Below are positions 1,949-25,411 of a stretch of DNA of 32,000 nt, one piece after another (positions within the stretch are counted from its first letter, which is position 1; the number at the start of each line of letters is the position of its first letter). The notes beneath the pieces are model-generated. The model worked only from the letters and a program-made list of their open reading frames with translations, searched no databases and was not told the DNA's origin. This DNA comes from Propionibacterium ruminifibrarum (GTDB taxonomy: Bacteria; Actinomycetota; Actinomycetes; Propionibacteriales; Propionibacteriaceae). The translations under genes and the position numbers were made by a program. The stretch covers positions 30,001 through 62,000 of the forward strand of contig NZ_OMOH01000005.1 in NCBI RefSeq assembly GCF_900289195.1, written 5' to 3'.

Positions 1949-4717
1949 GTGACCAAGAAGAAACTCATCGAGACCTCCCTGCCGCTGGAGGCCATCAACG
2001 CCGCCTCCGCCCGCGAGAAGTCGATTCGTCACGGGCACCCGTCCACCCTGCACCTGTACTGGTCCCGCAAACCATTGGCCACCGCCCGTGCCGTGCTGTT
2101 CGCCCAACTCGTCGACGACCCCGCCTCCCGGCCCGAGGAATTCCCCACGACCGCGGAGCAGGATGCCGAGCGGGCGAGACTGCACGCGCTCATGGAGAAG
2201 CTGGTGGTCTGGGAGAACAGCTGGGACGAAGGTCTGCTGCGCCAGGCTCGTGACGAGATCCGCAAGAGCAACGACGGCCGGCTCCCGCCGGTGCTCGACC
2301 CGTTCGCCGGTGGCGGTTCCATCCCGCTGGAGGCGCAGCGGCTCGGCCTGGAGGCCCACGCCAGCGACCTCAACCCCCTCGCCGTGCTCATCAACAAGGC
2401 GCTCATCGAGATCCCGCCCAAGTTCGCAGGAATGGCCCCGGTCAACCCGGACGCCCGCGACCAGAGCCTCTACCAGCGCGCGGAGGGGCTGGCCGCGGAC
2501 GTGCGCTACTACGGGCAGTGGATGCGCGACGAGGCGGAGCGCCGCATCGGTCACCTCTACCCGAAGGTCACCGCCCCCGACGGAACCGAGCACACCGTCA
2601 TCGCTTGGAAATGGGCGCGCACCGTCAAGAGTCCCAACCCGGCCAACCCCATCGAGGTGCCCCTGGTGAACTCGTGGTGGCTCAGCAAGAAGAAGGGCAA
2701 AGAGGCTTGGGTGCGCGCCACAGTGCGGGGCGGACAGGTGCACTACGAGGTAGTGCACAGCGCCGATGGGCCACGCGGCGAGGACGAGTGGACTATCAAG
2801 CATGGGAAAGGTGCGAAAGCAGTTGGTGATGGAACTCCCTTCAGCTACGACTACATCCGAGAAGAGGGGCTCAATGGTCGAATAGGATCCCATCTCATCG
2901 GTATTGTGGCAGAAGGGCAGCGGGGGCGTTTGTATTTCTCGCCATCGCAGGATCATGTTGCTGCGGCGCAGGTGGCACGTCCTGATATCAGTGTAGATGG
3001 CCAGATCGCAACCAATCCCAGGTGGTTCTCGCCTCCGGCCTATGGGAAGAAATACTTCTCCGAACTTTTCACGAACCGCCAGCTCGTGGCCATGACGACC
3101 CTCAGTGACCTCGTCGCTGAGGCGCGGGAGCGAGTAGTGAATGATGCTCTGCCTAAGGGGTTGCCAACAGGAGACCGTCTTGAGGCTGGTGGCAATGGCG
3201 CCCAAGCCTACGCCGATGCGGTGGCTACGTACCTTGCGCTAGGGGTGAGTCGTACTGTCGACTACTGCAATGCCATGTGTAGCTGGCATTCTGGGCGAGA
3301 TACGATCCGTAACATTTTTTCAAGGCAAGCCATTCCTATGGTCTGGGATTACGCCGAGGTGAATCCTTTTTCGGGTTCTTCGGGTAATTTTCTTGGTCAA
3401 GTTGAATGGGTTGTCAAAGCTCTCGAGTGTGTTCCAGCATCTGCCTGTGGCACTGCTGCACAAATCAGTGCTGTGGAGCGTGACTACAGTGGCCTCGTTG
3501 TCTCGACGGATCCGCCCTACTACGACAACATCGGTTACTCTGATTTGTCGGATTTCTTCTACGTTTGGCTGCGCCGCTCACTCAGGGACATTCATCCGAC
3601 GGTTGTCAGCACGATGCTCACCCCCAAGGCCGACGAACTCGTCGCCAATCCGTACCGTCACGACGGCAAGGAAGGGGCGGAACGGTTCTTCATCGACGGC
3701 TTCAACTCCGTCTTCGCTCGCGTCCGCCAAGGCGACAACCAAGCGGTGCCTATGACGGTGTACTACGCCTACAAACAGCAGGACGCGGAGGCCGATGGTA
3801 CCTCGTCCACCGGCTGGCACACCCTTCTTGACGGGCTCATCAAGGCCGGCTGGGAGATCACCGCCACGTGGCCGATGCGTAGCGAACTGACAAATCGGAT
3901 GCTCTCTCAGGGCACCAATGCTCTGGCGTCCTCGATCGTTCTGGCCTGCCGCCCCCGCCCCGTCGATGCGGAGTCCACCACCCGCCGGGCGTTCGTGGCT
4001 CGCCTCAAATCTGAACTGCCGGGGGCACTGCGCACGCTCATGCAGGGCGCCATCGCTCCGGTGGATCTGGCGCAGGCCGCCATCGGCCCCGGCATCTCGG
4101 TGTTCTCCCGGTATGCGCGGGTGCGTGAGGCGGACGGCTCCGACATGAGCGTGAAGGACGCGTTGCTGCTGATCAACGCAACCCTCGACGAGGTGCTCGG
4201 TGAGCAGGAGTCCGACTTCGACCCCGACACCCGTTTCGCCGTCAGGTGGTACCGCAGCTACGGCTGGGCCACCGAGAGCTCGGGCATGGCCGACCAGCTC
4301 GCCCGCGCCTCGGACACCTCCATCGGGGCGCTGGAACGCGGCGGAATCTTCGAAGCCAAGGGCGGCAAGGCCCGGCTGCTGCCGCCGGCCGAGCTGCAGG
4401 ACGCCTGGAACCCCGCGTCCGACGAACGCCTGAGCGTCTGGGAGGCCACGGTGCGCCTGGCCGCGGTCATGGACGATCAGGGAGCCGACGCGGTGGCCCA
4501 ACTACTGGCCGAGGCGCGGGACCACGTGAACCTCGACGCCGTCAAGGAACTGGGCTTCCTGCTGTTCCACGAGGCCGAGAAGAAGAACCAGGCCAAGGAC
4601 GCGCTGCTGTTCAACGGCCTCGTCAGCGCCTGGGGCGACATAGCGGAGCAGGCCCGCCGCATCGACCCGAGCTCCCGATCGGCACAGGCGGCGTTCGACT
4701 TCAACGAGGAAGAGTAA
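1949..4717 (+). CDS. DUF1156-family DNA methyltransferase (amino-methyltransferase type with DPPY catalytic motif)
   Basis: 922-aa ORF with a GTG start 43 nt after the helicase stop. N-terminal LIETSLPLEAINAASAREKSIRHGHPSTLHLYWSRKPL is the DUF1156 signature. SAM-binding motif I is LDPFAGGGSIPLEA. Catalytic motif IV is STDPPYY (DPPY at nt 3509-3520). Confidence 0.9.
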   Translation: MTKKKLIETSLPLEAINAASAREKSIRHGHPSTLHLYWSRKPLATARAVLFAQLVDDPASRPEEFPTTAEQDAERARLHALMEKLVVWENSWDEGLLRQARDEIRKSNDGRLPPVLDPFAGGGSIPLEAQRLGLEAHASDLNPLAVLINKALIEIPPKFAGMAPVNPDARDQSLYQRAEGLAADVRYYGQWMRDEAERRIGHLYPKVTAPDGTEHTVIAWKWARTVKSPNPANPIEVPLVNSWWLSKKKGKEAWVRATVRGGQVHYEVVHSADGPRGEDEWTIKHGKGAKAVGDGTPFSYDYIREEGLNGRIGSHLIGIVAEGQRGRLYFSPSQDHVAAAQVARPDISVDGQIATNPRWFSPPAYGKKYFSELFTNRQLVAMTTLSDLVAEARERVVNDALPKGLPTGDRLEAGGNGAQAYADAVATYLALGVSRTVDYCNAMCSWHSGRDTIRNIFSRQAIPMVWDYAEVNPFSGSSGNFLGQVEWVVKALECVPASACGTAAQISAVERDYSGLVVSTDPPYYDNIGYSDLSDFFYVWLRRSLRDIHPTVVSTMLTPKADELVANPYRHDGKEGAERFFIDGFNSVFARVRQGDNQAVPMTVYYAYKQQDAEADGTSSTGWHTLLDGLIKAGWEITATWPMRSELTNRMLSQGTNALASSIVLACRPRPVDAESTTRRAFVARLKSELPGALRTLMQGAIAPVDLAQAAIGPGISVFSRYARVREADGSDMSVKDALLLINATLDEVLGEQESDFDPDTRFAVRWYRSYGWATESSGMADQLARASDTSIGALERGGIFEAKGGKARLLPPAELQDAWNPASDERLSVWEATVRLAAVMDDQGADAVAQLLAEARDHVNLDAVKELGFLLFHEAEKKNQAKDALLFNGLVSAWGDIAEQARRIDPSSRSAQAAFDFNEEE

Positions 4718-4720
4718 GCC

Positions 4721-5551
4721 ATGGCCACGAAGCAGTCCCAGCCCCCACGTGGCCAAAAGGATGGCCCCGGCGCGGCGACCGCGTCCGCGGCCTCGTCCGG
4801 GGCTTACGTGCCCAAGGCTACCACCCCGGGTGACGCTTGGACCAGTCCGGTGGTTCCGTCCGATGCCTCGGATGGATCGTCCTCGGCTCCAGTTCCGGTC
4901 GGCATGCTGTTCCGACTGTTGAGCACAGAACGTATGGCCACCTATGCTGCCGAGTGCGCAGAGGACATGGAGCAGGCTCTGCGCCTTTACGCGTGGAACA
5001 CCGCGGTCTCCGCAGCCCTATGGGGAAGCTTCAACATTCTTGAGGTCACGCTGCGGAACGCTGTCGATCGTCAGCTGGCTGAACTTGCAGGGCGCACGGA
5101 CTGGTGGCGCGGGGAGAACCTGCTGCGCGATCAGGAAAGCCGTATTGCTCAGGATGCGGTGAGGGCGGCGAAGCGAACACACTCCGACCTCGAGATCCAG
5201 CCCGGGCACACCGTGGCAGAACTGACTCTTGGCTTCTGGGTCGGACTGCTCGCCAACAGGTATCACCAGCGGCTGTGGGTGCCCGCTCTTCATCGAGCCT
5301 TCCCCTACTGGCACGAAACGCGTAGGGAGCTGCATCGCAGGCTCGAGTCGCTGCGCAAGCTTCGTAACCGAGTTGCCCACCACGAACCGATCTTTGCCCG
5401 AAAACTAGTGGTAGACCATGACCAGTTGCTCGAAATTCTCGAAGGAATCGCCCCAGAGGCGGCAGCATGGGTTCGGCAGAACTCTCGCGTCCCGGACGTG
5501 CTCAGCCGACGCGCCCAGATTATTGCAGGCGCTGACAGTACCACCTTCTAG
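4721..5551 (+). CDS. Abi_2 / AbiD-AbiF-like abortive-infection protein (HEPN fold)
   Basis: LRKLRNRVAHHEPIF (RNxxAH HEPN motif, nt 5363-5380) plus N-terminal LRLYAWNTAVSAALWGSFNILEVTLRNAV are typical of the Abi_2 family. ATG 4721 lies 3 nt after the methylase stop and has a GAGGA Shine-Dalgarno about 10 nt upstream. The recognisable domain only begins near the alternative ATG at 4904 (MLFRLLSTER), so the start is ambiguous. Confidence 0.7.
   Translation: MATKQSQPPRGQKDGPGAATASAASSGAYVPKATTPGDAWTSPVVPSDASDGSSSAPVPVGMLFRLLSTERMATYAAECAEDMEQALRLYAWNTAVSAALWGSFNILEVTLRNAVDRQLAELAGRTDWWRGENLLRDQESRIAQDAVRAAKRTHSDLEIQPGHTVAELTLGFWVGLLANRYHQRLWVPALHRAFPYWHETRRELHRRLESLRKLRNRVAHHEPIFARKLVVDHDQLLEILEGIAPEAAAWVRQNSRVPDVLSRRAQIIAGADSTTF
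4761..4820 (+). repeat. Junction repeat copy A (hairpin-forming, GC-rich)
   Basis: atGgccccggcgcggcgaccgcGTCCgcggcctcgtccggggctTacgtG... aligns without gaps to 6691-6750 at about 50 of 60 positions. The outer 7-bp stem is gccccgg/ccggggc, and an inner stem flanks the variable centre. Confidence 0.8.
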
Positions 5552-5581
5552 AGGACAACGATGGCGATGAACAACCGAGAT
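5542..5581 (+). repeat. Direct repeat copy 1 (Abi stop, RBS and codons 1-7 MAMNNRD)
   Basis: cacCttctagAGgacaacgatggcgatgaacaaccgagat matches 7452-7491 at 37 of 40 positions. Weaker similarity extends about 12 nt further upstream. Confidence 0.9.
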
Positions 5582-6676
5582 AAAGCGCGGCGTGATGGTG
5601 CAGCAAGCCGCCATTCTGCCCCAGGTCTGACGCCGTTCCCGGCCTTCGCGGAATCGGTCAGTGCTGGTGACGGTGAACTCGTGGAGCAGGTGTCGGCTCT
5701 GATCGACCAGGCTCAAGCGTTCGCTGCGGCGCAGGCGAACGCGACCTTGACCCTGCGGAACTGGTACATCGGGCGCTTGATTGACGTAGCCGTGCTGCGC
5801 GAGGGCCGCGCAGGGCACGATCAAGAACTTGTTGCGTCACTGGCGCAACAATTGACCTCAAGGTACGGGCGCGGCTATGACCGGACAAACCTGTACCGGA
5901 TGGTGCGATTCTCCCAACAGTTCACCGATCCAGAACGTGTTGCGTCGCTGGCGCAACATGTCAGTTGGACTCACTTCCGCGAGCTGCTCCCACTCGGCTC
6001 CGATGAGGCGCGCATCTTCTACGTGCAGGAGACTATCGATCGCCGACTCAGCGTCCGGGAGCTGCGCCACGCCATCTCCCGCAAGGCTTTCGAGCGCCGC
6101 GAGATCGCCGACTCACAGATTCCCGAAGGGTCAGGAACGCCACTGGACGCGTTCCGCGACCCGATGCTGCTCGACATGCTCGGTCTCGCGGACACGTTCC
6201 TGGAGCGCGACCTCGAAGCCGCCCTGCGTCATGACATGGAGGCGTTCCTGCTGGAAGCCGGCCGCGGGTGGGCGTTCGTTGAACGGCAGAAGCGCATGAC
6301 CTTCGACGGCGATGACTACTTCCTCGACCTGCTGTTCTACTCAAGGCCACTGCATCGGTTGATTGCGGTTGAGCTGAAGGTCGGAAAATTCAAGCCCAGT
6401 TATCAAGGGCAGATGAACTTCTATCTGAAGTGGCTCGACAGGTACGAACGGCAGGCTGACGAGAACCCGCCCATTGGCCTGATCCTGTGCACCGAGGCGA
6501 GCCGGGACCAGATCGAGTTGCTTGAGTTGCACAAGGACGGGATTGTCGTCGCCGAGTACTGGACGACGCTGCCGCCCAAGGCCGAGCTCCAGGCCCGGAT
6601 CGCCCAGATCTACCGGGAGGCCCAGGAGCGGATCGCCCGGCGGCAGCTCACGGCGCCGGAGGCCAGCGATGAGTAA
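5561..6676 (+). CDS. DUF1016 / YhcG-like PD-(D/E)xK nuclease domain protein
   Basis: N-terminal helical region ANATLTLRNWYIGRLI. C-terminal nuclease core YFLDLLFYSRPLHRLIAVELKVGKFKPSYQGQMNFYLKWLD (D...ExK). The first 7 codons (MAMNNRD) and the RBS are a copy of the DUF499 gene start. Confidence 0.85.
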   Translation: MAMNNRDKARRDGAASRHSAPGLTPFPAFAESVSAGDGELVEQVSALIDQAQAFAAAQANATLTLRNWYIGRLIDVAVLREGRAGHDQELVASLAQQLTSRYGRGYDRTNLYRMVRFSQQFTDPERVASLAQHVSWTHFRELLPLGSDEARIFYVQETIDRRLSVRELRHAISRKAFERREIADSQIPEGSGTPLDAFRDPMLLDMLGLADTFLERDLEAALRHDMEAFLLEAGRGWAFVERQKRMTFDGDDYFLDLLFYSRPLHRLIAVELKVGKFKPSYQGQMNFYLKWLDRYERQADENPPIGLILCTEASRDQIELLELHKDGIVVAEYWTTLPPKAELQARIAQIYREAQERIARRQLTAPEASDE

Positions 6677-6821: not shown

Positions 6822-7070
6822 ATGACTTCGTTGACCACTATCAAGGTGTCCACGGGCACCAGGGACCGGCTGCGCGAGGCCTCCCGCGCCGCGGGCATCT
6901 CTCAGGCTGCGCTCATCGAGCAGATGCTCGACGCGCGCGAGGAGGCCGCCTTCTGGGAGGCCCTCGATGCCGCGCCCCCGTACACCGACGAGGAGCGGGA
7001 GGAGTTCCGTCGCGGCGAGGCGGCCTCGTTGGCGGATGCGGCGCGCCTGTTGGAGGATGAGGAGCGGTGA
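6822..7070 (+). CDS. Ribbon-helix-helix type antitoxin, partner of the MazF/PemK toxin
   Basis: 82-aa acidic protein. N-terminal TTIKVSTGTRDRLREASRAAGISQAALIEQML looks like an RHH beta-strand plus two helices. Its stop overlaps the toxin start (GTGA at 7067-7070). An alternative upstream ATG at 6669 has GGAGG 6 nt upstream and would add a 51-aa N-terminal extension, so the start is uncertain. Confidence 0.7.
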   Translation: MTSLTTIKVSTGTRDRLREASRAAGISQAALIEQMLDAREEAAFWEALDAAPPYTDEEREEFRRGEAASLADAARLLEDEER

Positions 7071-7381
7071 CGCCTCTGCCCCATCCGGGCGACGTGGCGT
7101 GGCTTGACATGTCCCCGACCATCGGGCGGGAGCAGCGGGGCCACCGCCCCTATCTCGTGCTCTCCGATGCCCGGCTCCACCGGGCGCGACAGCTGGTGAT
7201 CGGGGTGCCGCTCACGACGCGCAACAGTCCGATCCCCACGCGCGTCGCCGTCGGCGAGGGGTCGTACGCCATCGCGGAACAACCCACGACGTTCTCGATG
7301 GAGAGGATCACCAGGGTGGAGGCCCGCGGCCTCGACACCGCCGAGGTGCGGCGCGTCATCGTTCGGCTGCTCGGGGGATGA
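7067..7381 (+). CDS. mazF: MazF/PemK-family type II toxin (endoribonuclease)
   Basis: 104 aa. PGDVAWLDMSPTIGREQRGHRPYLVLS ... VIGVPLTTR is the typical PemK/MazF N-terminal SH3-like signature. There is a 4-nt overlap with the upstream antitoxin. Confidence 0.85.
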   Translation: MTPLPHPGDVAWLDMSPTIGREQRGHRPYLVLSDARLHRARQLVIGVPLTTRNSPIPTRVAVGEGSYAIAEQPTTFSMERITRVEARGLDTAEVRRVIVRLLGG

Positions 7382-7451: not shown

Positions 7452-7491
7452 CACGTTCTAGGAGACAACGATGGCGATGAACAACCGAGAT
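7452..7491 (+). repeat. Direct repeat copy 2 (RBS and codons 1-7 of the DUF499 ATPase gene)
   Basis: cacGttctagGAgacaacgatggcgatgaacaaccgagat; see copy 1. Confidence 0.9.
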
Positions 7492-10400
7492 CGAGTGGGC
7501 AGGGCCTTCGACCTGCTCTCCGAGGGTCTCCACGACCTGGTGGACGAGGTGATGACCAAGACCTACAACTCATCGCAGTGGCCTGACGCGTGGGCCGAGG
7601 AGGATGCCCGGCGTCGGGGTGGCCCCGTGAGGACCATGACCAAGCAGGACGTCCAAGTGCAGCTTCGCGCCATCACCGAACGCGGCTACGAGTTCAAGGA
7701 CGTGCTGTCCCGGGCTCAGCAGAGCTTCGCCTCCGAACTGCGCGAGACCCGCAACAAGTGGGCGCACAACGAGCCGTTCAGCTCCGACGACACCGTCCGC
7801 GCCCTCGACACCATCGAACGGCTCCTCGAAGCAGCGGGATCCACCGACTCGGCCGCCGACGTGCGCAAACTGCGCACCGACCTGCAACGCACCGTCTACG
7901 AGGAACAGACCCGCAAGCAGGCCAAGAAGGCCACCACGGTGTCCCTCGAACCTGGGGCCGGGCTGAAACCCTGGCGCGAGGTGATAAGGCCCCACGACGA
8001 CGTGGCCAGGGGCGAGTTCACCGCCTCCGAGTTCGCCGCCGACCTGCACTTGGTGCACACCGGACAGGCCACCAGCCCGGAGTACGGCGACCCGGTGGAG
8101 TTCTTCTCCCGCACCTACCTCACCGAGGGCCTGCGCGATCTGCTGTCCCGGGCCCTGCGCCGCCTGGATGGCGACGGCAACGCCAGCCCGGTGGTGAACC
8201 TTCAGACCAACTTCGGCGGCGGCAAGACCCACTCCATGCTCGCCCTCTACCACCTGTTCTCCGGAACCCCGGCGCAGCGCCTCCCGCAGGACGTGCAGGA
8301 ACTCGTCGCCGAGGTCGGCAACCCCGACCTGGCGGCGCTCAACGTCAGGCGGGTCGCCCTGGTCGGCACATACCTGAAGGCGGGATCGCCGCAGGTCAAA
8401 CCGGACGGCACCCAGGTGCACACCCTGTGGGGCGAGCTGGCATGGCAGCTCGGCGGGCGCGAGGCCTATGACATCGTCGCCGACGACGACCGGGCGGGCA
8501 CCAGCCCCGGCGAGGCGCTGCGAAGGCTGATCCAGGCCTACGCCCCGGCGCTCATCCTCATCGACGAGTGGGTGGCCTACGCCCGCCAGTTGGTCACCGA
8601 CCAGGAACTCCCCGCCGGCTCCTTCGACACCCAGTTCACCTTCGCCCAGTCCCTGACCGAGGTGGTGCGGTCGGTCCCGGGGGCCATGCTCGTGGTCTCC
8701 ATCCCCGCCTCCGACAGCGGCGACCGGGGAAGCGACATCGAGATCGGCGGGGCCAACGGGCAGCTCGCCCTCGACCGCCTCCAGAACGTCATCCGCAGGG
8801 TGGCCGACCAGTGGAGGCCCTCCAGCCGGGACGAGTCCTTCGAGATCGTCCGCCGACGCCTGTTCCAGGCCCCGGACGCCGCAGGACTCACCTACATCTC
8901 GGCAGTGGCCCGCACCTTCGCCACCATGTACCGGAACAACTCGGCGCTGTTCCCCCGGGACGCGGCGACACCGAACGACGACTACGAGAAACGCATCCGC
9001 GCCTCGTACCCCCTGCACCCCGAACTGCTGGACCGGCTGTACGAGGACTGGTCCGCGTTGGAACGGTTCCAGCGCACCCGCGGGGTGCTGAAACTGGTGT
9101 CGTCCATCGTCCATGAGCTGTGGGCCTCGAACGACACGTCCCCGCTGATCCTGCCCGGCAATGTGCCGCTGGACGCCACGACGGTGAACACCGATCTGAC
9201 CCAGTACCTGGAGGACCAGTGGAAGCCGATCATCGACTCCGACATCGACGGCGCCAGCTCGACGGCCCAGCGGATCGACCTGGACCGTCCCAGTCTGGGG
9301 CAGCGGTTCGTGACACAGCGCATCGCCCGCACCATCTTCATGGGGGCGGCGCCCCGCAGCCGGAGTGCCCGCAAGGGGCTGGACAAGCAGTACGTGTGGC
9401 TCGGCACCGCCGTGCCCGGCGACGTGCTGGGCAACTTTGGTAGCGCCATCGAGCAGCTGGCCCAGCGCTCCACGTACTTCTACGAGGAGCAGGGCCACTA
9501 CTGGTTCGACACCCAACCGTCCGTCACCAAGACCGCCAGCGACTACGCCGAGAGGCTGCGCGAGGACGTCGAGACGGTGTGGAACGAGATCACCAGGCGG
9601 CTCCGCGGCGAGGAACGCAGCCGCGCCGAGTTCGACCGGGTGCACGTGGCCCCCGAATCCAGCGCCGACATCCCCGACCTGGAGGACACGCGGCTGGTGA
9701 TCGCGCACCCCAGGCACAGCGTCCGCAGGCAGGATGGACCCGACTCGGAGGCCTTCCAGTGGGTGCACGAGGCGGTCGAGACGAAGGGGGCCGGGCAGCG
9801 CATCCACCGCAACACGCTGATCTTCCTGCTGGCCGATTCGGGCCAGCTGGAGAGCCTGGAGTCCGCGACGCGCACCTACCTGGGCTGGAAGCAGGTGCAG
9901 GCGACCAGTGAGACCTTGAACCTCACGGCCCAGCAGCACAAACAGGCCGACGAGTGGGTGAGTCGTCTGGACCAGACCGTCACCGACCGGATCCGCGACA
10001 CCTTCGTGTGGGCGCTGTACCCCGAGCAATTCGACCCGACCAAACCCTTCGACGTGGTGTCGAGCAGGATCCTCGACTCCGGCACACGCTCCCTCGCCGA
10101 ACGGGTGAGCACGAAACTCGTACGCGAGGAACAGCTGATCACCCAGCTGGGCGCGGCCAGCCTGGGGGACGCGCTGCACCGGGAACTGGGGGCGCTGTGG
10201 CAGGACAGGGGCGAGATCACGGCCGAGGAACTGTGGGGCTACTTCACCCGGTACACCTACATGCCGAGGCTGGCCAGCCGGGACGTGCTCGACAACGCCA
10301 TCAAGCAGTCACTGACCGCCGTGCTTGTCGAGAACGAACGCTTCGCGATCGCCACCGGCAAGGACGAGGAAACGGGCCGCTACCGCGGCCTGCTCATCCC

Positions 10401-10872
10401 GCCCGACCCCAACGCCACGCTTCAGGTCACCGACGGCACGCTGCTCGTCGCAATCGAGCGCGCCCAGCAGCAGGTCGATGCGGAACAGGCCGATGCCGCC
10501 CAACCCGCCGGAACCAGTGTGGCAACGGATGCCGGTCAGACGGCTGCGGGTGGTTCAGCCGACTACGTGTGGGCCAGCGGCATACCCGCGGCAACGGGGA
10601 GCGAACAGTCCGGTGCTGAATCGGAACTGGAGGCCGTGCTCGGTCGTTTCTTCGGGTCGGTCAGGATCAACTCCGACCGCTACAACCGCGACATCGGCAA
10701 CATCACCCGCGAGGTCATCGACCGGCTGGCCGGCTCCGGTGCCCAGCTGGAAATCACCATCGACATTCAGGCCATCAAGAAGGAAGGATTCACCGAGTCC
10801 GAGGTGCGTACCATCAGCGAGAATGCGCGGGTGCTGAAGTTTGACCCCGATTCGGGCTTCGAGCAGGACTGA
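7471..10872 (+). CDS. DUF499-family P-loop ATPase with N-terminal Swt1-like HEPN domain
   Basis: 1133 aa. HEPN motif ETRNKWAHNEPF (nt 7750-7767). Walker A is NFGGGKTHSML and Walker B is ALILIDEWVAY. C-terminal FFGSVRINSDRYNRDIGNITREVIDRL...ENARVLKF is typical of DUF499-type ATPases. Confidence 0.85.
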   Translation: MAMNNRDRVGRAFDLLSEGLHDLVDEVMTKTYNSSQWPDAWAEEDARRRGGPVRTMTKQDVQVQLRAITERGYEFKDVLSRAQQSFASELRETRNKWAHNEPFSSDDTVRALDTIERLLEAAGSTDSAADVRKLRTDLQRTVYEEQTRKQAKKATTVSLEPGAGLKPWREVIRPHDDVARGEFTASEFAADLHLVHTGQATSPEYGDPVEFFSRTYLTEGLRDLLSRALRRLDGDGNASPVVNLQTNFGGGKTHSMLALYHLFSGTPAQRLPQDVQELVAEVGNPDLAALNVRRVALVGTYLKAGSPQVKPDGTQVHTLWGELAWQLGGREAYDIVADDDRAGTSPGEALRRLIQAYAPALILIDEWVAYARQLVTDQELPAGSFDTQFTFAQSLTEVVRSVPGAMLVVSIPASDSGDRGSDIEIGGANGQLALDRLQNVIRRVADQWRPSSRDESFEIVRRRLFQAPDAAGLTYISAVARTFATMYRNNSALFPRDAATPNDDYEKRIRASYPLHPELLDRLYEDWSALERFQRTRGVLKLVSSIVHELWASNDTSPLILPGNVPLDATTVNTDLTQYLEDQWKPIIDSDIDGASSTAQRIDLDRPSLGQRFVTQRIARTIFMGAAPRSRSARKGLDKQYVWLGTAVPGDVLGNFGSAIEQLAQRSTYFYEEQGHYWFDTQPSVTKTASDYAERLREDVETVWNEITRRLRGEERSRAEFDRVHVAPESSADIPDLEDTRLVIAHPRHSVRRQDGPDSEAFQWVHEAVETKGAGQRIHRNTLIFLLADSGQLESLESATRTYLGWKQVQATSETLNLTAQQHKQADEWVSRLDQTVTDRIRDTFVWALYPEQFDPTKPFDVVSSRILDSGTRSLAERVSTKLVREEQLITQLGAASLGDALHRELGALWQDRGEITAEELWGYFTRYTYMPRLASRDVLDNAIKQSLTAVLVENERFAIATGKDEETGRYRGLLIPPDPNATLQVTDGTLLVAIERAQQQVDAEQADAAQPAGTSVATDAGQTAAGGSADYVWASGIPAATGSEQSGAESELEAVLGRFFGSVRINSDRYNRDIGNITREVIDRLAGSGAQLEITIDIQAIKKEGFTESEVRTISENARVLKFDPDSGFEQD

Positions 10873-10914
10873 ACTAAATTAAGGCTGAAATCAGAGATGC
10901 TGCTGACAGGGAGT

Positions 10915-10932
10915 AAAACCATTTTTGGTTTT
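10915..10932 (+). terminator. Weak AU-rich hairpin plus T-rich tail after the DUF499 gene
   Basis: aaaacca-tttt-tggtttt followed by gtgtattgtttc, 43 nt after the stop codon. The stem has only 2 G:C pairs. Confidence 0.35.
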
Positions 10933-11735
10933 GTGTATTGTTTCTGATGTGCAGGCTGGGGTCACATTCGAAGAAGTTTTCACCCTTGCCGCGTGGAAGG
11001 AATGGTTGCCATCTATGTGTTAGCTCGGATGGGGACCGAAGCGATCTGTTATGCTTCAAGGGACCGGTGATTAGGATCTTGCGTAGTGGGAAGGCTACAC
11101 GGGGATGGTTTGCAGACTGATAGGGCACCAGGATGTGCTTGACCCCGATTCGTTACGTGAGGAACCCAGCCGTTGTGAAACTCTCCTGTGCTCAGAAAGA
11201 AAAGGAAGAAGAGTTTCGACTAGTCATCAAAACTAGTGTTCATGATGGATTCGGGCTTGACGTCTTGAAAATCCTGAATGTGTTACTACGTTTTGATCCA
11301 CTGGCATCGTAAATCCGGTTAGCTGTACATTTTCTTGACGCATTTCAAAGTGACATTTTACCAATCCGATGCTTAGTGTCCTGGGTTTTCGATTCTCTGG
11401 CATGTCTAACTTCATACAGATAAATGCCGCTACTTCTGCTAAACTGGTCTGTATATCAGTCACACATCTCAATCGATTTTCCATAAGAGCGAACTCTATC
11501 ATAGAGTGATAAAGCGCCTCCGGGGTGCATGTCAGATCAAGGGCGCGTTATGTGTGAAAAGACTGGGTTGTAGTAAGCTCAGTCTGAGTGTGTGAGGACA
11601 ACTAAAGCAGGACATGGCGGGTGGGAACTATCGGTGCTGAATCCAAGGCCTGAGCGGTTGTGAACTCAACAAGACAGTTTGAATACTGCTTGCGGGAAAA
11701 GGGATTGGGCTTCACTGGAAACGCATAAAGTGAAA

Positions 11736-11778
11736 GAATAGACGCTATCATGATAGCGGAGTACTTCGGCGTCTATTC
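11736..11778. repeat. Nested palindrome in the non-coding part of the AT-rich island
   Basis: The 10-bp arms gaatagacgc (11736-11745) and gcgtctattc (11769-11778) enclose a perfect 14-bp palindrome gctatcatgatagc (11744-11757). The palindrome shares 2 nt with the left arm, so the two pairings compete. Confidence 0.7.
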
Positions 11779-11854
11779 GCGGAGTGATACAAGTAAAGTT
11801 GCTAAAATCTGTTCTATGGTGCTCCTCCGATGTTGCCCTCGCCAAGACTGATCG

Positions 11855-13111
11855 ATGTTTTCTGCTATCGTTCCGAGTATGAAAGGTCATCCACGCATGC
11901 CTCCTTACGGATCTGCACGGGATCTCCCATCAGTCAAGGAGATAGAACAGCAAATAGCAGCATTCAAGAAGGTGATGTTCTTTTCGCGTGATAAACGGAG
12001 GCGGCTAGAGCAGTTAGAAAACAAGCATCGACATATAATAGAAACCGTTGACACTTTCTATGACTTGCTCGGGGCGCGCAACTGGGTTTTCACTGATGAT
12101 CTCAACTTAGATGAGATTCAAAAAGTCGTGGCTGGCTCTGATTCGCAGGTGGCGGAAAAGCGTCTTATTGAGTATTACCAGAAAACTGGACGAATCTCAT
12201 CTCTACTTCGTCAGCTCAGCCGATTTGACGAGATGCAGAAGCGTCTTCCCCTGCTACAGAAGGCGCTGGCTGATTATGAAGCGGGTCGCTACTACAGCAC
12301 CGTTCTTGTCATACTTTCAATGATGGATGGTTCCGTCAATGACCAGGACACGGCACAACGCAGAGGACTGCATGCACGTTCGCCCGAAGATATGATGGCC
12401 TGGGATAGCGTCGTCGGGCATCATCTTGGGCTGGGGCATGCTCACAAATCCTTCGTTAAAGCGTATTTCAAGACAGATGAAACCGAAATTACTGAGCTGG
12501 CTCGTAATGGAATCATGCACGGCACTTTGGTGAACTATGACAACGTAGTAGTCGCAACAAAAGCTTGGAATCGTCTTTTTGCAGTTGCTGACTGGGCTGA
12601 TGCGCGGAAGCGACAAAAACGACCTGTTGAACCAGCGCCCTCGTATAGAGAATTAATGACACGTTGGTGTAAAATCCAGTCTAACAAGACTAAGATTGAA
12701 CAGTGGCAGCCGTATGAGTATGATCCAAACTTACCGCATGAAGATCCCGCTGAAGTTGCCATGGTGTGCGCAGACTTTCTTGAGCGATGGAGTAAGCGCC
12801 AATGGGCGCCGATGGGTGAGTACTTTATAAAACTCGTGAACCCCCAGCGGCCCCCCGGCCAACTTGCGCGAGAAGCCAGGGATCTTTACGAGCAGTTCAA
12901 TCTTGACGAATGGAAGATCCTTAGAGTGCGACACGAGGCCGCTGCCGTCGCGTATACTGATGTGCAGCTCATAGTGAATTCCAGGATTTACCTGGCTGAT
13001 CTACGTTGGATTCATGTTGACGGTAATGAGAAAACTGCCATGGAATGGGAACCTGGACGTTGGGTGCTGTCACCGTATGGGCCAAATAAATTCCTCAGTA
13101 TCGACGATTAA
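11855..13111 (+). CDS. Hypothetical protein (418 aa) with a HEPN-like Rx4H motif; orphan gene of the AT-rich island
   Basis: This is the only long ORF in the island, and its low-GC codon usage is consistent with the island. The pattern LQKALADYEAGRYYSTVLVILSMMDG ... ELARNGIMHG (R217-x4-H222, nt 12503-12520) resembles a HEPN four-helix bundle. The N-terminus is predicted coiled-coil-like, and the C-terminal ~150 aa is an unrecognised globular region. The start is uncertain (ATGs at 11855, 11879, 11897). Confidence 0.6.
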   Translation: MFSAIVPSMKGHPRMPPYGSARDLPSVKEIEQQIAAFKKVMFFSRDKRRRLEQLENKHRHIIETVDTFYDLLGARNWVFTDDLNLDEIQKVVAGSDSQVAEKRLIEYYQKTGRISSLLRQLSRFDEMQKRLPLLQKALADYEAGRYYSTVLVILSMMDGSVNDQDTAQRRGLHARSPEDMMAWDSVVGHHLGLGHAHKSFVKAYFKTDETEITELARNGIMHGTLVNYDNVVVATKAWNRLFAVADWADARKRQKRPVEPAPSYRELMTRWCKIQSNKTKIEQWQPYEYDPNLPHEDPAEVAMVCADFLERWSKRQWAPMGEYFIKLVNPQRPPGQLAREARDLYEQFNLDEWKILRVRHEAAAVAYTDVQLIVNSRIYLADLRWIHVDGNEKTAMEWEPGRWVLSPYGPNKFLSIDD

Positions 13112-13476
13112 AGTTATTCATGGTGCCCGCGGATGAGGTATAGTATCGCGACACTTCGAGTGAAGGCTTCTGCTGATAAGGTTGCTAGTGTCGCGAGTCG
13201 TTAGTTTTGATGGTTTGGGGTCAGGGAAGATCTCGCCGTGAGGAATTCTCTGGTTCCTGTTTTAGTGTTAAATGGTTATGGTTGGGGTTGCTGTAGTTAT
13301 GGGCGGGCTGTCATTGACTTGCACTGGGCCTGCGATGAGGGATTGGGGCCGTGCTGCTCGCGATTGGACGGGTTCAGATGCGGGTCTCATGCGCTCCATT
13401 CATCAGCGTGTCGGAGCGTGACGTCGTACTCGTTGTCGGAAGGCCGCCCCCGACATATACATGTTAGATTGTATGT

Positions 13477-14040
13477 ATGAGACGGACGGCTGAGGCTGCG
13501 GAGCAGACGCGGCGCGCGCTGCTGGAGGCGGCGCTGTTGACCTTCGAGGAGAGGGGCTGACGCGGGGCGACCTTCGAGGTCGTCGCCGCTCGCGCAGGTG
13601 TCACCCGCGGCGCGTTGCACCATCACTTCAGTTCCAAGGCCGTGCTGCTCGAGGACGCGCTCGCATGGGGCTGGGCCGAGTACGGGGCACGGCTCTTCGA
13701 TGTCGAACCCGCGGACCTGGCGGCACTGCTGCCCGAGTTCGTGCACCTCCTGCGCGAGGACGCCAGGTTCCGCGCCCTGGCGGCCTGCACGGTGCTCGTC
13801 GCGCCGCAGGCCCTCGGCGACACCGCCGGGAAGAACGCCGCACTCGATGCCTGGCGCGACCGTATCGCCGCCGGCCTCCCCGCCACTTCCGAATCCACCC
13901 CAGAAACGGTCGCAGCCCTGGCGCTGGTGCTCGTGCAGGGGCTCACCGTGACAGCCGTGATGCGCCCCGACGATCTTCCCCGGCCCGACGAGCTGAGCGC
14001 CACGATCTCGGCGCTGGCAAGGGGGTTGCGCCCGACATAG
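13477..14040 (+). pseudogene. TetR-family transcriptional regulator interrupted by an in-frame TGA at 13558-13560
   Basis: ATG 13477 gives MRRTAEAAEQTRRALLEAALLTFEERG, then TGA. The same frame continues RGATFEVVAARAGVTRGALHHHFSSK (TetR HTH) into the tracked ORF 13615-14040. The stop falls just before the HTH. Confidence 0.75.
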
Positions 14041-20642: not shown

Positions 20643-21272
20643 ATGAGCAGGAACGCCTCCGTGGTTGCCGGGGCCGTGGTGGCCGCACTCCTGGTCAGCG
20701 GGTGCGCGGCCCAGGGTGGACGGTCCGATCGGGCCGGCTCCTCCGGGCAGTCCACTGGCGGGACGGCCGACACGCCTCGGCCCTCTGCCGTCACGGCGGA
20801 GCCATCCCAGCGGACGAGCAGCGCCGGGCGGAGAACCGCCGATGTCACGGCCCATGACCTGCTCACTGCGGTGTCACCCGGGTGTGCCTACGAGAGCGAG
20901 AGGATGGTCGGCGGGCAGGTGCCGGGGGCGATCACGGCGTACGTTCGTCATGAGCCGGGTCATCCGTGGTCACCGGTCTACCTGGACATGGCCGCCCTCG
21001 GCTACCGGCAGGCGCTGTCGGTGTTCGTCTGCGGCGGCGAGAGCATGGACCCGGACCGGCTCATGCTGACTGGCGCCGGGGGCGAACTCATCGACTCCCT
21101 GGTGCTGGGTGGTTCCGGCGAGGCGCCGTACTCCGATGTGCGGTCGATGGAGCCGGTCGGTAACTCGGTGCGCGTCACGTGGGTGGCGAGCGGGGCCGCT
21201 GGGAAGGATCCGGTCGAGCATGCGGGCACGGTGCGCTACGAGGACGGAAACCTCACCTACACGGAGGACTGA
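20643..21272 (+). CDS. Lipoprotein, paralog 1 of a tandem triplet (uncharacterised family)
   Basis: Signal peptide with lipobox AALLVSGC. Conserved C-terminal domain with EPGHPWSPVYLDM, YRQALSVF, LMLTGAGGEL, SVRVTWVASG and GTVRYEDGNLTY. Confidence 0.7.
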   Translation: MSRNASVVAGAVVAALLVSGCAAQGGRSDRAGSSGQSTGGTADTPRPSAVTAEPSQRTSSAGRRTADVTAHDLLTAVSPGCAYESERMVGGQVPGAITAYVRHEPGHPWSPVYLDMAALGYRQALSVFVCGGESMDPDRLMLTGAGGELIDSLVLGGSGEAPYSDVRSMEPVGNSVRVTWVASGAAGKDPVEHAGTVRYEDGNLTYTED

Positions 21273-21397
21273 CCAGGATCGTAACCGGGCGATCATGGTG
21301 CCGGGACGGCCGCGTGACCAGGATCGTTCGTGACGAAACCCCTCCGAACCCAGGGCCCGGGGACGGAGGCGGGCTCTGCGAGGTGAAGAATACGGCC

Positions 21398-22045
21398 ATG
21401 GGTAAGAGCATCACTGTGGTCGCGGGCGTGGCGATGGCCGCACTGCTGGTCGGCGGGTGCGGGACGCAGGGCGGGCAACCCGAACGGGCTGCTTCGCCCG
21501 AGCAGTCCTCCGTCGAAACGACCGGCACGCCGCAGCCCACGGCATGGCCGACCCCCACTGCCGCGACGACGGAGCAGACCCAGCAGGGTGGTGCCACCGA
21601 GGAGACGCCGGCCGATGTCACGGTCGAGGACCTGCTGACGGCCGTGTCTCCCGACGCCTGCCAGCCGAGCACGAGAATGATCGACGGAATGGTTCCCCTG
21701 ACGACCATCGACCACATCGAGTACGAGCCGGGCCATCCGTGGTCGCCGGTCTACCTCGACATGGCGGGCCTGGGCTACCGGCAGGCGCTGTCGGTGTTCG
21801 CCTGCGGCGGGGCCAACTTCATACCGAACTATCTGATGCTGACCGGCTCAGGCGGTGAACTCATCGGAGTCGTTTCGCTGTCCGACCACACGGACACCGA
21901 TCACGGCGACGTGCGGTCCATGGAGCAGGACGGGGACTCGGTGCGCGTCACATGGGTGGCGAGCGGGAGCGCGGGAGCGAATCCTGTCGAGCGCTCGGGA
22001 ACGGTGCGCTACGAGGACGGCCGCCTCGTCTACACCGAGGACTGA
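21398..22045 (+). CDS. Lipoprotein, paralog 2 of the tandem triplet
   Basis: Internal ATG at 21398 of tracked ORF 21179-22045 gives MGKSITVVAGVAMAALLVGGC (lipobox). It has the same conserved C-terminal domain. Confidence 0.7.
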   Translation: MGKSITVVAGVAMAALLVGGCGTQGGQPERAASPEQSSVETTGTPQPTAWPTPTAATTEQTQQGGATEETPADVTVEDLLTAVSPDACQPSTRMIDGMVPLTTIDHIEYEPGHPWSPVYLDMAGLGYRQALSVFACGGANFIPNYLMLTGSGGELIGVVSLSDHTDTDHGDVRSMEQDGDSVRVTWVASGSAGANPVERSGTVRYEDGRLVYTED

Positions 22046-22172
22046 ACGAGCCCGGCCCAGCGCCAAGCCCGGCGGCCGCCGGGCCGCACGGGGAGACACC
22101 GCTGAGCCTGTTCCCGATTGCCCAGTCACGACTCCAGGAGCCTGGCCGGCGAGAAGGGTGAAGAATGCTGCC

Positions 22173-22679
22173 ATGAGCAAGAGCACCACCGCGATTGCCG
22201 GGGCCGTGATGGCCGCGATCCTGGCCAGCGGGTGCGGCATGCAGGCCCCCGGTGTCACGGTCGTCGACCTGCAGACTGCGGAGGCGCCCTACCCATACGA
22301 GGGCACGAGGATGGTTGACGGGAAGGTGCCGGGGGCGACCATGGGGTACGTTCGTCACGAGCCGGGTCATCCGTGGTCGCCGGTCTACCTCGACATGATG
22401 GGACGGGGCTACCAGCAGGCGCTGTCGGTATTCGTCAGCGGCGGGGTCCAGATGGATCCGGACCGTCTCATGCTGACCGGTCTGGGCGGGCAGCTCGTCG
22501 ACACCCTGTGGCTGGGCCGCTCCGACGAAGCGCCGTATGCCGACGTGCAGTCGATGGAGCAGGACGGGGACTCGGTGCGCGTCACGTGGGTGTCGCACGG
22601 GGCCGCCGGGGCGGGTGCGGTCGAGCACGCGGGTACGGTGCGCTACGAGGACGGGCGGCTCACCTACTCCGGGGACTGA
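22173..22679 (+). CDS. Lipoprotein, paralog 3 of the tandem triplet (short linker, lacks the Cys pair)
   Basis: Internal ATG at 22173 of tracked ORF 21855-22679 gives MSKSTTAIAGAVMAAILASGC (lipobox). It has the same conserved C-terminal domain. Confidence 0.7.
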   Translation: MSKSTTAIAGAVMAAILASGCGMQAPGVTVVDLQTAEAPYPYEGTRMVDGKVPGATMGYVRHEPGHPWSPVYLDMMGRGYQQALSVFVSGGVQMDPDRLMLTGLGGQLVDTLWLGRSDEAPYADVQSMEQDGDSVRVTWVSHGAAGAGAVEHAGTVRYEDGRLTYSGD

Positions 22680-22800
22680 CCAGGGAGAACATGACCCGGA
22701 CCGGGTCCGGCCAGAGCTTGCCCGCCGGTCGGGGTGGACAAGGCGTGTCGACTGGGAACATGGCCGGTCCGGGGCTTCGCCGCGTGGGCATAATCGGTGC

Positions 22801-24410: not shown

Positions 24411-25411
24411 GACTCATGAGACATCTGGTACGGCAGGCGCGACGCGTCGGCCTCGTCGGCGTCCTCGCCGCGGTCCTGGCGCTCCTCGCGCCGGGCCCGG
24501 CCAAGGCGGCGCCCGCCGAGGCGATGGCGCCCCGGGTGCTCCTCTCCGCCTTCGCCACGATCCCCGAGGAACCCGCGGCCGGCGAGGAGTTCACCGTCAA
24601 CCTCACGCTGAAGAACGCGTCATCCACCACCGGTGTGCAGAACCTCAAGACGACCATCAGCGCCCCCGACGGCTCCCTGCTGCCGGTCGGCGGCGCCGCC
24701 TCGGTGTACACCCAGTGGATCGGGGCGGGGGCCGCCGTCGGCTACGAGCTGCGGTTCCAGTCCCTGCCGACCGCAGAGGAGGGCCCGCACCAGCTCACCC
24801 TGCACGTCGACTACGAGGAGGCGGCCGGCGGCACCGCGCTGGTCTCCGACGAGACGATGACGGTGCGCGTCAGACAGCACACCCGGGTCGAGACCTCGGA
24901 GCTGGAGCTGCAGCCGTCGAACCTGACCGTCGGCCAGGACACCAACCTCAGCTTCAGCGTGCTGAACAAGGGCAAGAACAAGCTCTACAACACCTCCGTC
25001 GCTGTCAAACCCGACCAGGCGGTCACCGCGCCGGAGCAGTTCGTCGGCACTATCGAGGCCGGCACGGCGGGGGCGGTGGACATGGTGCTGCACGCCGATG
25101 CCGCATCGAACGCCCCGGTGACCCTGGTGATCAGTTACGAGGACGCGGGCGGGACCGTCACGACGTTCGAACGGCAGGTCGAGCTGATCATCGACGAGCC
25201 GCCCACCTCGGAACCAGTCCCCGAGGAGCAGATGCAGTCCACCGGCGTGGCACTGAGCCCGCTGGCGATCGTGGTGCCGCTCGCCCTCGTGGTTGCCCTG
25301 GTCATCGTTCTCATCGTGCGCAGGCGGCGCAAGCGGGCTGCTGCTAACGCCGAGGAGTTCCTCGCCGCCCTCGACGCCGAGCCCCCGCTCATGCCCGAGG
25401 ACCAGGAGTGA
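24407..25411 (+). CDS. Secreted, C-terminally membrane-anchored beta-rich surface protein of the ABC operon
   Basis: ATGA overlap with the ATPase stop. Signal peptide MRLMRHLVRQARRVGLVGVLAAVLALLAPGPAKAAPA. Two repeated beta-sandwich-like segments (EEFTVNLTLKNAS..., QDTNLSFSVLNKG...). C-terminal TM helix followed by RRRRKR. Confidence 0.65.
   Translation: MRLMRHLVRQARRVGLVGVLAAVLALLAPGPAKAAPAEAMAPRVLLSAFATIPEEPAAGEEFTVNLTLKNASSTTGVQNLKTTISAPDGSLLPVGGAASVYTQWIGAGAAVGYELRFQSLPTAEEGPHQLTLHVDYEEAAGGTALVSDETMTVRVRQHTRVETSELELQPSNLTVGQDTNLSFSVLNKGKNKLYNTSVAVKPDQAVTAPEQFVGTIEAGTAGAVDMVLHADAASNAPVTLVISYEDAGGTVTTFERQVELIIDEPPTSEPVPEEQMQSTGVALSPLAIVVPLALVVALVIVLIVRRRRKRAAANAEEFLAALDAEPPLMPEDQE

Follow-up and report, generated by a model that had tools for sequence, protein, structure and literature searches.

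A replaceable AT-rich cassette with a single conserved gene adjoins the Hma defence operon of Propionibacterium ruminifibrarum

How does a block of AT-rich DNA come to lie directly beside a bacterial defence operon when no mobility gene accompanies it, and what does its one long gene do? The question arises in a 32,000-nucleotide stretch of Propionibacterium ruminifibrarum DNA (contig NZ_OMOH01000005.1, positions 30,001 to 62,000 of the forward strand; hereafter the window, whose own positions are used throughout), in which a segment of low GC content separates hmaC, the final gene of an Hma system, from a TetR-family regulator gene. The reading that we prefer, with moderate confidence, is that positions 10874-13451 are recently acquired foreign DNA in a replaceable slot running from the hmaC stop codon to the TetR promoter, and that the single gene which they carry is probably conflict-related.

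The AT-rich cassette and its junctions

A first-pass annotation made from the letters alone had described a sharp GC drop after the stop codon of an ATPase gene, which is hmaC, and the drop is real. The variable cassette, delimited by alignment with a related contig and by composition (10874..13451; 2,578 bp), has a GC content of 0.488, whereas the mean for all other windows of that size in the 32 kb is 0.686 (standard deviation 0.027, minimum 0.626), placing the cassette 7 standard deviations lower. Measured in 500-bp windows, GC runs at 0.67-0.70 across hmaC, at 0.45-0.52 over ~10.8-13.4 kb and at 0.72 beyond; in 100-bp windows it falls at the left edge from 0.65 through 0.57 to 0.41 at 10873, and at the right edge it passes through 0.53, 0.63 and 0.60 to 0.70 (bins starting 13252-13552). 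GC at third codon positions (GC3) is 0.49 in the island gene compared with 0.87-0.92 in host genes. Given these differences in GC and in GC3, we conclude that the DNA is of foreign origin. Its sole long open reading frame (ORF) lies at 11855..13111 on the plus strand and encodes 418 amino acids, as the first-pass annotation had it; the remaining ORFs do not exceed 99 amino acids, or 89 for those wholly inside the non-coding flanks, and no matches were found for these small ORFs. The upstream flank (10874..11854; 981 bp, GC 0.46) holds no convincing ORF, and the downstream flank within the cassette (13112..13451; 340 bp, bounded by the same alignment and composition) rises in GC from 0.50 to 0.63. 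The flank lengths given earlier, 981 bp and 365 bp, are correct, the latter being counted to the TetR ATG at 13477.

To place the junctions we recovered same-species contigs through exact-protein look-ups of the two MFS transporter genes that follow TetR; all of the non-identical relative contigs are metagenome or draft assemblies. Six sequences (L084-L087, L089 and L093) share the hmaC-island-TetR layout of the window, with an identity to it of 99.6-100%. A seventh contig, L088, is 99.1% identical on the MFS/TetR side as far as window position 13452 and 93.5% identical over the 3' end of hmaC, where the match terminates exactly at window position 10873. The homology thus ends on the left 1 nt beyond the hmaC stop codon and on the right at 13451/13452, which leaves 25 bp to the TetR ATG. 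Between the positions matching 10873 and 13452, L088 carries 989 bp of unrelated DNA with a GC of 0.61, whose opposite strand encodes a PIN toxin together with an antitoxin-like protein of 76 aa (RHH+PIN). Since L088 has other content at the same two junctions, the segment is a replaceable cassette and not an ancient locus. The right edge proposed at first thus moves from 13476 to 13451/13452, and the comparison with related genomes that had been proposed for finding the boundaries defined both of them, though by way of a different cassette and not of an empty site.

The right junction is marked by the sequence GACATATACATGTTAGATTGTATGTATG (13452..13479, plus strand), a palindrome-rich stretch that ends with the ATG of TetR and is identical in the window and in L088 though the sequences to its left are unrelated; this conserved anchor is promoter/operator-like. 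On the left side, the L088 hmaC is reduced to two fragments (equivalent to window positions 10458-10873 and 10004-10161; L088 ~10930-11740) after which comes a YhcG-like gene (70% identity); L088 has a decayed Hma system. Two more distant Hma operons differ again at this point: no cargo follows hmaC in L096 (HmaC 88% identical), and in L098 (HmaC 79% identical) hmaC is followed by a Gabija-like ATPase+UvrD pair and then by a PIN pair, the PIN toxins of L098 and L088 being 46% identical. Because L088, L096 and L098 differ there, we regard the position after hmaC as a variable cargo site. The PIN pair, which is better ameliorated than the window cassette and recurs near Hma, is plausibly an earlier occupant of the slot. 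Given that the contents differ between close strains while the junctions are identical, we propose that the slot content would be swapped by homologous recombination through the conserved flanks.

A quite different explanation would make the low-GC segment a structural or regulatory locus of long standing, common to the whole species and kept AT-rich by selection. The segment is indeed present, syntenic and almost free of single-nucleotide polymorphisms (SNPs) in all of the 99.6-100% identical strains, and the gene family is AT-biased in most of its hosts. L088, however, lacks the segment at the same junctions, the GC3 of 0.49 stands within a genome of ~0.9, and among other Propionibacteriaceae even the nearest homologues reach just 57-64% identity, in different genome contexts. 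We consider an old locus very unlikely indeed; a syntenic segment of the same low GC in all relatives, which had been named at the outset as the finding that would speak against acquisition, is not what L088 presents. Recent acquisition, in turn, gains support from the un-ameliorated composition, from the different cassette of L088 and from the restriction of copies with at least 90% identity to the same species.

As to how the cassette arrived, the first-pass annotation had seen no integrase, transposase, tRNA or flanking direct repeats, and the searches agree with it: there is no tRNA in the window, the island has neither direct repeats at its edges nor tandem arrays, its flanks match no Rfam family, and no integrase, transposase or other mobility gene was found in the window or, extending the earlier statement, in the ~6 kb upstream of hmaA. 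Since an integrase or transposase, a tRNA target and flanking direct repeats were all not found, the segment does not qualify as a classical mobile genomic island (integrative element), whereas its strong deviation in composition and its replacement polymorphism with defined junctions in L088 are those of a horizontally acquired genomic islet.

Each flank holds one perfect 10-bp inverted repeat. The downstream one, tcgcgacact (13146-13155) and agtgtcgcga (13187-13196), is exactly as first reported; it lies 35-85 nt past the stop codon of the island gene, and on the plus strand 13146..13196 is predicted to form a hairpin of -23.8 kcal/mol followed by a U-rich stretch, which may act as a terminator or a stabilising hairpin. 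The upstream one, GAATAGACGC (11736-11745) and GCGTCTATTC (11769-11778), has a 23-nt loop and lies 77-119 bp 5' of the ORF; a T-rich run follows 11736..11778 when it is read on the minus strand. Dinucleotide shuffling gave a mean of 0.16 perfect 10-bp repeats per cassette and reached two in 3.8% of shuffles, and the folding z-scores of the hairpins (-0.6 to -1.4) show that their stability is not unusual.

Distribution and setting of the gene family

According to database calls the island gene probably starts at 11879 (410 aa) or 11897 (404 aa). We found at least 683 homologues among the scored candidates, and an exhaustive profile search gave at least 1,194 clusters at 50% identity (E<=1e-3); in view of this large conserved family, the ORF at 11855-13111 is a real gene. 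A scan of species-representative genomes yielded 80 homologue loci in Actinomycetota (hosts including Schaalia, Corynebacterium, Kocuria, Leucobacter, Tessaracoccus, Streptomyces, Kitasatospora and Nocardia) and in Chloroflexota/Dehalococcoidia. The closest homologues outside the species are 61-64% identical, and a search for a donor found no copy of at least 90% identity beyond P. ruminifibrarum and no copy in a phage. The homologues are lower in GC than their surroundings in 66 of 70 loci, by a median of 5.5 points, the window copy being the most AT-rich; single-gene AT-rich islets recur, as in the Streptomyces locus L056 (0.52 within a background of 0.72).

The settings of the homologues are those of mobile and defence DNA. 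Family copies are present on Rhodococcus, Prescottella and Streptomyces plasmids. A TrwC relaxase gene lies directly upstream of the homologue in L005, L016, L054 and L072; tyrosine integrases occur nearby in 6 loci and serine recombinases in 4, together with transposases of the DDE, rve and ISL3 types. Defence-type neighbours comprise SIR2_2, HsdR, OLD/GajA/AriA, ShosA-like DprA, Mrr, DUF6119 and a PHP-SMC ATPase. The gene thus belongs to a family that is real, widespread, linked to mobile elements and defence islands, and without a known domain; conjugative elements, plasmids and defence islands are the vehicles on which it travels between members of Actinomycetota and Chloroflexota. The phage and plasmid searches that had been suggested therefore succeeded in part: plasmid copies of the gene were found, while 50,697 phage records gave no tblastn or blastn match to it and the flanks matched nothing.

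No partner or antitoxin gene recurs in the 80 loci, as judged by neighbour clustering and by Pfam and PADLOC scans of the 139 nearest ORFs; some distant loci have small ORFs directly upstream of the homologue, which are mutually unrelated. Lacking a recurrent, co-oriented small neighbour, the gene does not classify as part of a type II toxin-antitoxin pair. The flank sequences of the island are absent from all other homologue loci, and since Hma genes are missing there too, the island gene is the only unit common to the loci. In five Dehalococcoidia loci (L065, L070, L071, L077 and L078; ~7.8-12.1 kb of each), a STAND-like AAA_16/ORC-CDC6-like ATPase gene with a TrmB winged helix-turn-helix domain lies upstream of the homologue, overlapping or nearly abutting it, and a DUF2971 gene lies downstream in 4 of the 5 (not in L070), where the genes appear to form a unit of three; this arrangement may be a multi-gene version of the system. 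Among long family members with N-terminal extensions, only P0183 has a recognisable domain there, HTH_3, and this fusion may be a gene-calling artefact. A UniRef label of 'DUF2397' on one homologue was not reproduced by Pfam scans and was disregarded.

The same data bear on the main rival to our reading, in which the cassette is all that is left of a decayed mobile element, such as a fragment of a plasmid or of an integrative and conjugative element, with flanks that are eroded genes and a gene that serves maintenance, establishment or anti-defence. The position of homologues directly downstream of TrwC relaxases in four loci and close to the termini of linear or large plasmids would fit such a remnant, as would the unusually long ORF-free flanks (981 bp and 340 bp) and the absence of a known defence domain within the island. 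Against it, blastx and tblastx searches against the neighbours of homologues in the 80 loci were empty, those against plasmids and phages likewise, and the upstream flank had no similarity to sequences adjoining homologues in other loci; moreover, no phage-encoded homologue was found by sequence, and many copies are chromosomal and lie beside defence genes with no transfer genes nearby. We therefore judge a decayed element to be an unlikely source of the cassette and prefer its acquisition as cargo of the slot.

The encoded protein and its possible role

An AlphaFold2 model built from an alignment of 96 sequences was confident (mean predicted local distance difference test score, pLDDT, 90.4; predicted template modelling score 0.76) and divides the protein into a helical N-terminal part (residues ~25-283) and an alpha+beta C-terminal domain (~287-413) that is putatively NTF2-like. 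The invariant residues cluster in the N-terminal part, as D158-G159, H189-H190-x-G-L-x-x-A, R217-x-G-I-x-H222, N230, N239 and D246; the His-rich motif HHxGLxxAH includes H197, which we count with this His/Arg/Asp cluster. In the C-terminal domain, conservation is limited to the structural Trp and Leu residues W312, L350, W385 and W403. This domain was the only one that Foldseek comparison with the PDB could place, through weak matches to the NTF2-like/SnoaL fold (E 4e-3 to 3e-2; template modelling (TM) scores 0.41-0.51), the best of them at E ~4e-3 with TM 0.43-0.51, and the best viral fold match was an uncharacterised Siphoviridae protein, also weak (TM 0.57, E 0.02).

R217 and H222 are invariant across the 96 sequences, the residue next to the Arg being Asn or His, and the pair conforms to the R-x4-6-H motif of HEPN proteins. 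This R-N-x3-H motif suggested a HEPN ribonuclease, and three tests of HEPN membership were therefore run. If it were one, the protein would be a highly divergent relative of Abi_2/AbiD-type toxins that cleaves RNA on activation. In its favour, the invariant R217-N-G-I-x-H222 stands at a helix end, with a loop and then a long helix after it, an arrangement shared with Abi_2, hhalign places exactly this motif on the RNRxAHH of Abi_2, and the only compact PDB matches of a model of the N-terminal part alone are the HEPN domains 1wol and 1o3u (TM 0.49). Yet the E-values of these two matches were 3-6, those of the Foldseek search as a whole being 3-7, the HEPN protein HepS (9oij) matched much more weakly (TM 0.2), the hhalign probability against the Abi_2 family was 0.4% over only 13 motif columns, and none of the 29 family members tested matched the Pfam HEPN models, even at E<=10. 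The model of the N-terminal part alone also lost confidence (pLDDT 71, and below 50 for residues 181-223, around the motif). Since the profile and fold tests gave no support beyond the motif, HEPN membership is not established and the likeness stays at the level of the motif; we think a HEPN ribonuclease improbable. The loss of confidence at the motif once the C-terminal domain is removed suggests, as far as a model can, that the conserved patch lies at the interface of the two domains.

Returning to the gene as conflict-related cargo, we tentatively propose, at a confidence somewhat short of probable, that it encodes a stand-alone conflict effector acting in defence against phages or mobile elements or in abortive infection, possibly of a nuclease or RNase type. 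The invariant cluster of the helical domain (D158, H189, H190, H197, R217-N-x3-H222, N230, N239 and D246) would then form the active centre, and the NTF2-like domain packed against it might serve as a sensor or regulatory module. We further speculate, from what is generally known of actinobacteria, that the AT-rich flanks could keep the gene under Lsr2-type xenogeneic silencing. A bolder and rather doubtful extension of these ideas is that the ~410-aa family constitutes a new single-gene anti-phage or anti-plasmid system, in which an undescribed nuclease/RNase-type fold (D158, HHxGLxxAH and R-N-x3-H) is gated by the NTF2-like sensor and AT-richness is itself functional, for example through Lsr2-type silencing of a toxic effector until infection.

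Several observations weigh against a conflict gene in a replaceable slot. The protein, searched as a single sequence and as a profile, has no sequence match in Pfam, PADLOC, NCBIfam, PHROG or the PDB, and the defence models of PADLOC-DB 2.0 returned 0 families at E<=0.01; nor does HEPN homology find support past its motif, the hhalign probability being 0.4% and the fold matches lying at E>1. Hma proteins, all of which were used in tblastn searches, are absent from the 80 homologue loci, and the neighbouring genes provide qualitative evidence that lacks a background control. A distance of 981 bp separates the gene from hmaC, and its upstream region revealed no clear promoter. The alternative allele of the slot is known from L088 only. 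In addition, the copy in this strain may be impaired: the gene is intact wherever it is fully readable (L084-L087 and L093; the L089 copy is cut at the contig end), and its single difference among strains, at position 12333, falls in codon 160 (12332..12334, plus strand), which is TCC (Ser) here and in the identical twin L086 and TTC (Phe) in four relatives. At least 90% of family members have Phe as residue 160 (MDGFVN motif), so that F160S alters a near-invariant position. The suggestion of defence or anti-defence cargo made at first is therefore plausible on contextual evidence, with the mobile and defence neighbours of homologues and the toxin-antitoxin pair as alternative occupant speaking for it, and the lack of a match to any known defence family and of an Hma link in the 80 loci speaking against it.

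The Hma operon, related systems and implications

PADLOC identifies the operon upstream of the island as an Hma system, a type first described in PMC8565338. Its genes all lie on the plus strand: hmaA (31-1905, cut by the window edge), hmaB encoding a DUF1156 methylase (1949-4717), an embedded Abi_2/PD-T4-5-like HEPN protein gene (4721-5551), an embedded gene for a YhcG/DUF1016 PD-(D/E)xK protein (5561-6676; PDC-S02), an 82-aa ORF directly 5' of PemK that encodes a putative antitoxin (6822-7070), the PemK/MazF toxin gene between YhcG and hmaC (7067-7381), and hmaC, encoding a protein with HEPN_Swt1 and a DUF499 ATPase (7471..10872; PADLOC HmaC E=4.7e-271, and Pfam), which forms the left anchor of the cargo slot. 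Three modules (Abi_2, YhcG and PemK) are thus nested between hmaB and hmaC, consistent with the published pattern of embedded genes, which 62.7% of Hma systems hold (preprint 10.1101/2024.01.29.577857). Within hmaB there is a second GC dip, to 0.55 at ~2750-3750, which may be a variable target-recognition region.

The near-identical strains differ by 0-1 SNP per kb in the cassette and in the core genes, but by 13-15 SNPs per kb in hmaC (43-44 in total, 36 synonymous and 7 non-synonymous, at positions 7614-10326). Since hmaC is SNP-dense while the neighbouring core genes and the cassette are nearly SNP-free, it looks like an imported or recombined allele. In L093, hmaC is longer by ~177 bp close to its 3' end (L093 ~6496-6672; window ~10657-10733), the addition being made up of a 77-bp duplication and ~100 bp, and HmaC is called there at 1,088 aa. 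On the other side of the slot, the TetR-family gene (13477..14040, plus strand) is the native right flank and, as first reported, a pseudogene in this strain through the nonsense mutation W28* (TGG>TGA at 13558-13560); relatives have an intact gene (187 aa). This strain and the identical L086 carry both W28* and F160S; the four sister strains carry neither.

The remaining genes of the window encode hydrolases, transporters and glycosidases, and the 6 kb upstream of hmaA hold only DUF3024, DUF3039 and HTH_17 genes. Three tandem paralogues without Pfam domains (168, 243 and 203 aa; 69-79% nucleotide identity) lie at ~20660-22690, and a dense SNP cluster relative to L084 occurs at 25279-25359 in a CARDB/FtsX transporter region.

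The closest known setting is that of the variable cargo 'hotspots' of defence islands and of genes nested within or attached to Hma, BREX and type I restriction-modification operons (Payne et al. 2021, PMC8565338; Payne et al. 2024, 10.1101/2024.01.29.577857). As in such hotspots, foreign DNA lies beside a multi-gene defence system in the same orientation, mobility genes are not needed, and different conflict modules, here the PIN toxin-antitoxin pair, occupy one position in related strains. Unlike the candidates embedded in Hma operons (Payne et al. 2024), the island gene follows hmaC instead of lying between hma genes, matches no HEC or PDC model in PADLOC-DB 2.0 and is not associated with Hma in other genomes. 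The VapBC type II toxin-antitoxin cassettes of L088 and L098, a type common near Hma, are comparable as small self-contained modules without mobility genes, that of L088 at the same junctions, but the island has one gene with no detectable antitoxin partner, from a family without a conserved neighbour. With HEPN abortive-infection proteins (Pfam Abi_2, that is AbiD/AbiF, and Swt1-like HEPN) the protein shares the R-N-x3-H motif in an all-helical domain, a single-gene architecture and defence or mobile contexts; it differs from them in having no significant profile or fold similarity and in its additional HHxGLxxAH motif and NTF2-like C-terminal domain, both atypical of HEPN. The C-terminal ~120 residues are modelled as the alpha+beta cone of NTF2-like/SnoaL folds (limonene epoxide hydrolase, ketosteroid isomerase and the N-terminal domain of PBP5), but the match is weak and none of the catalytic residues of those enzymes was identified in the island protein.

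Together, the data show foreign DNA with exact junctions and an alternative cassette in the same slot, and the island illustrates, in an ordinary way, how cargo turns over at a defence locus; its two junctions are known to the single nucleotide, and no mobility gene is present. They also flag a large family that is absent from curated libraries, behaves as mobile conflict cargo would and has a confidently predicted structure whose main domain is without a solved relative, and which it is reasonable to treat as a candidate new defence or conflict gene. If the gene does act in defence or anti-defence, high-GC Gram-positive bacteria, a group that is under-represented in defence-system discovery, would gain a new single-gene system.

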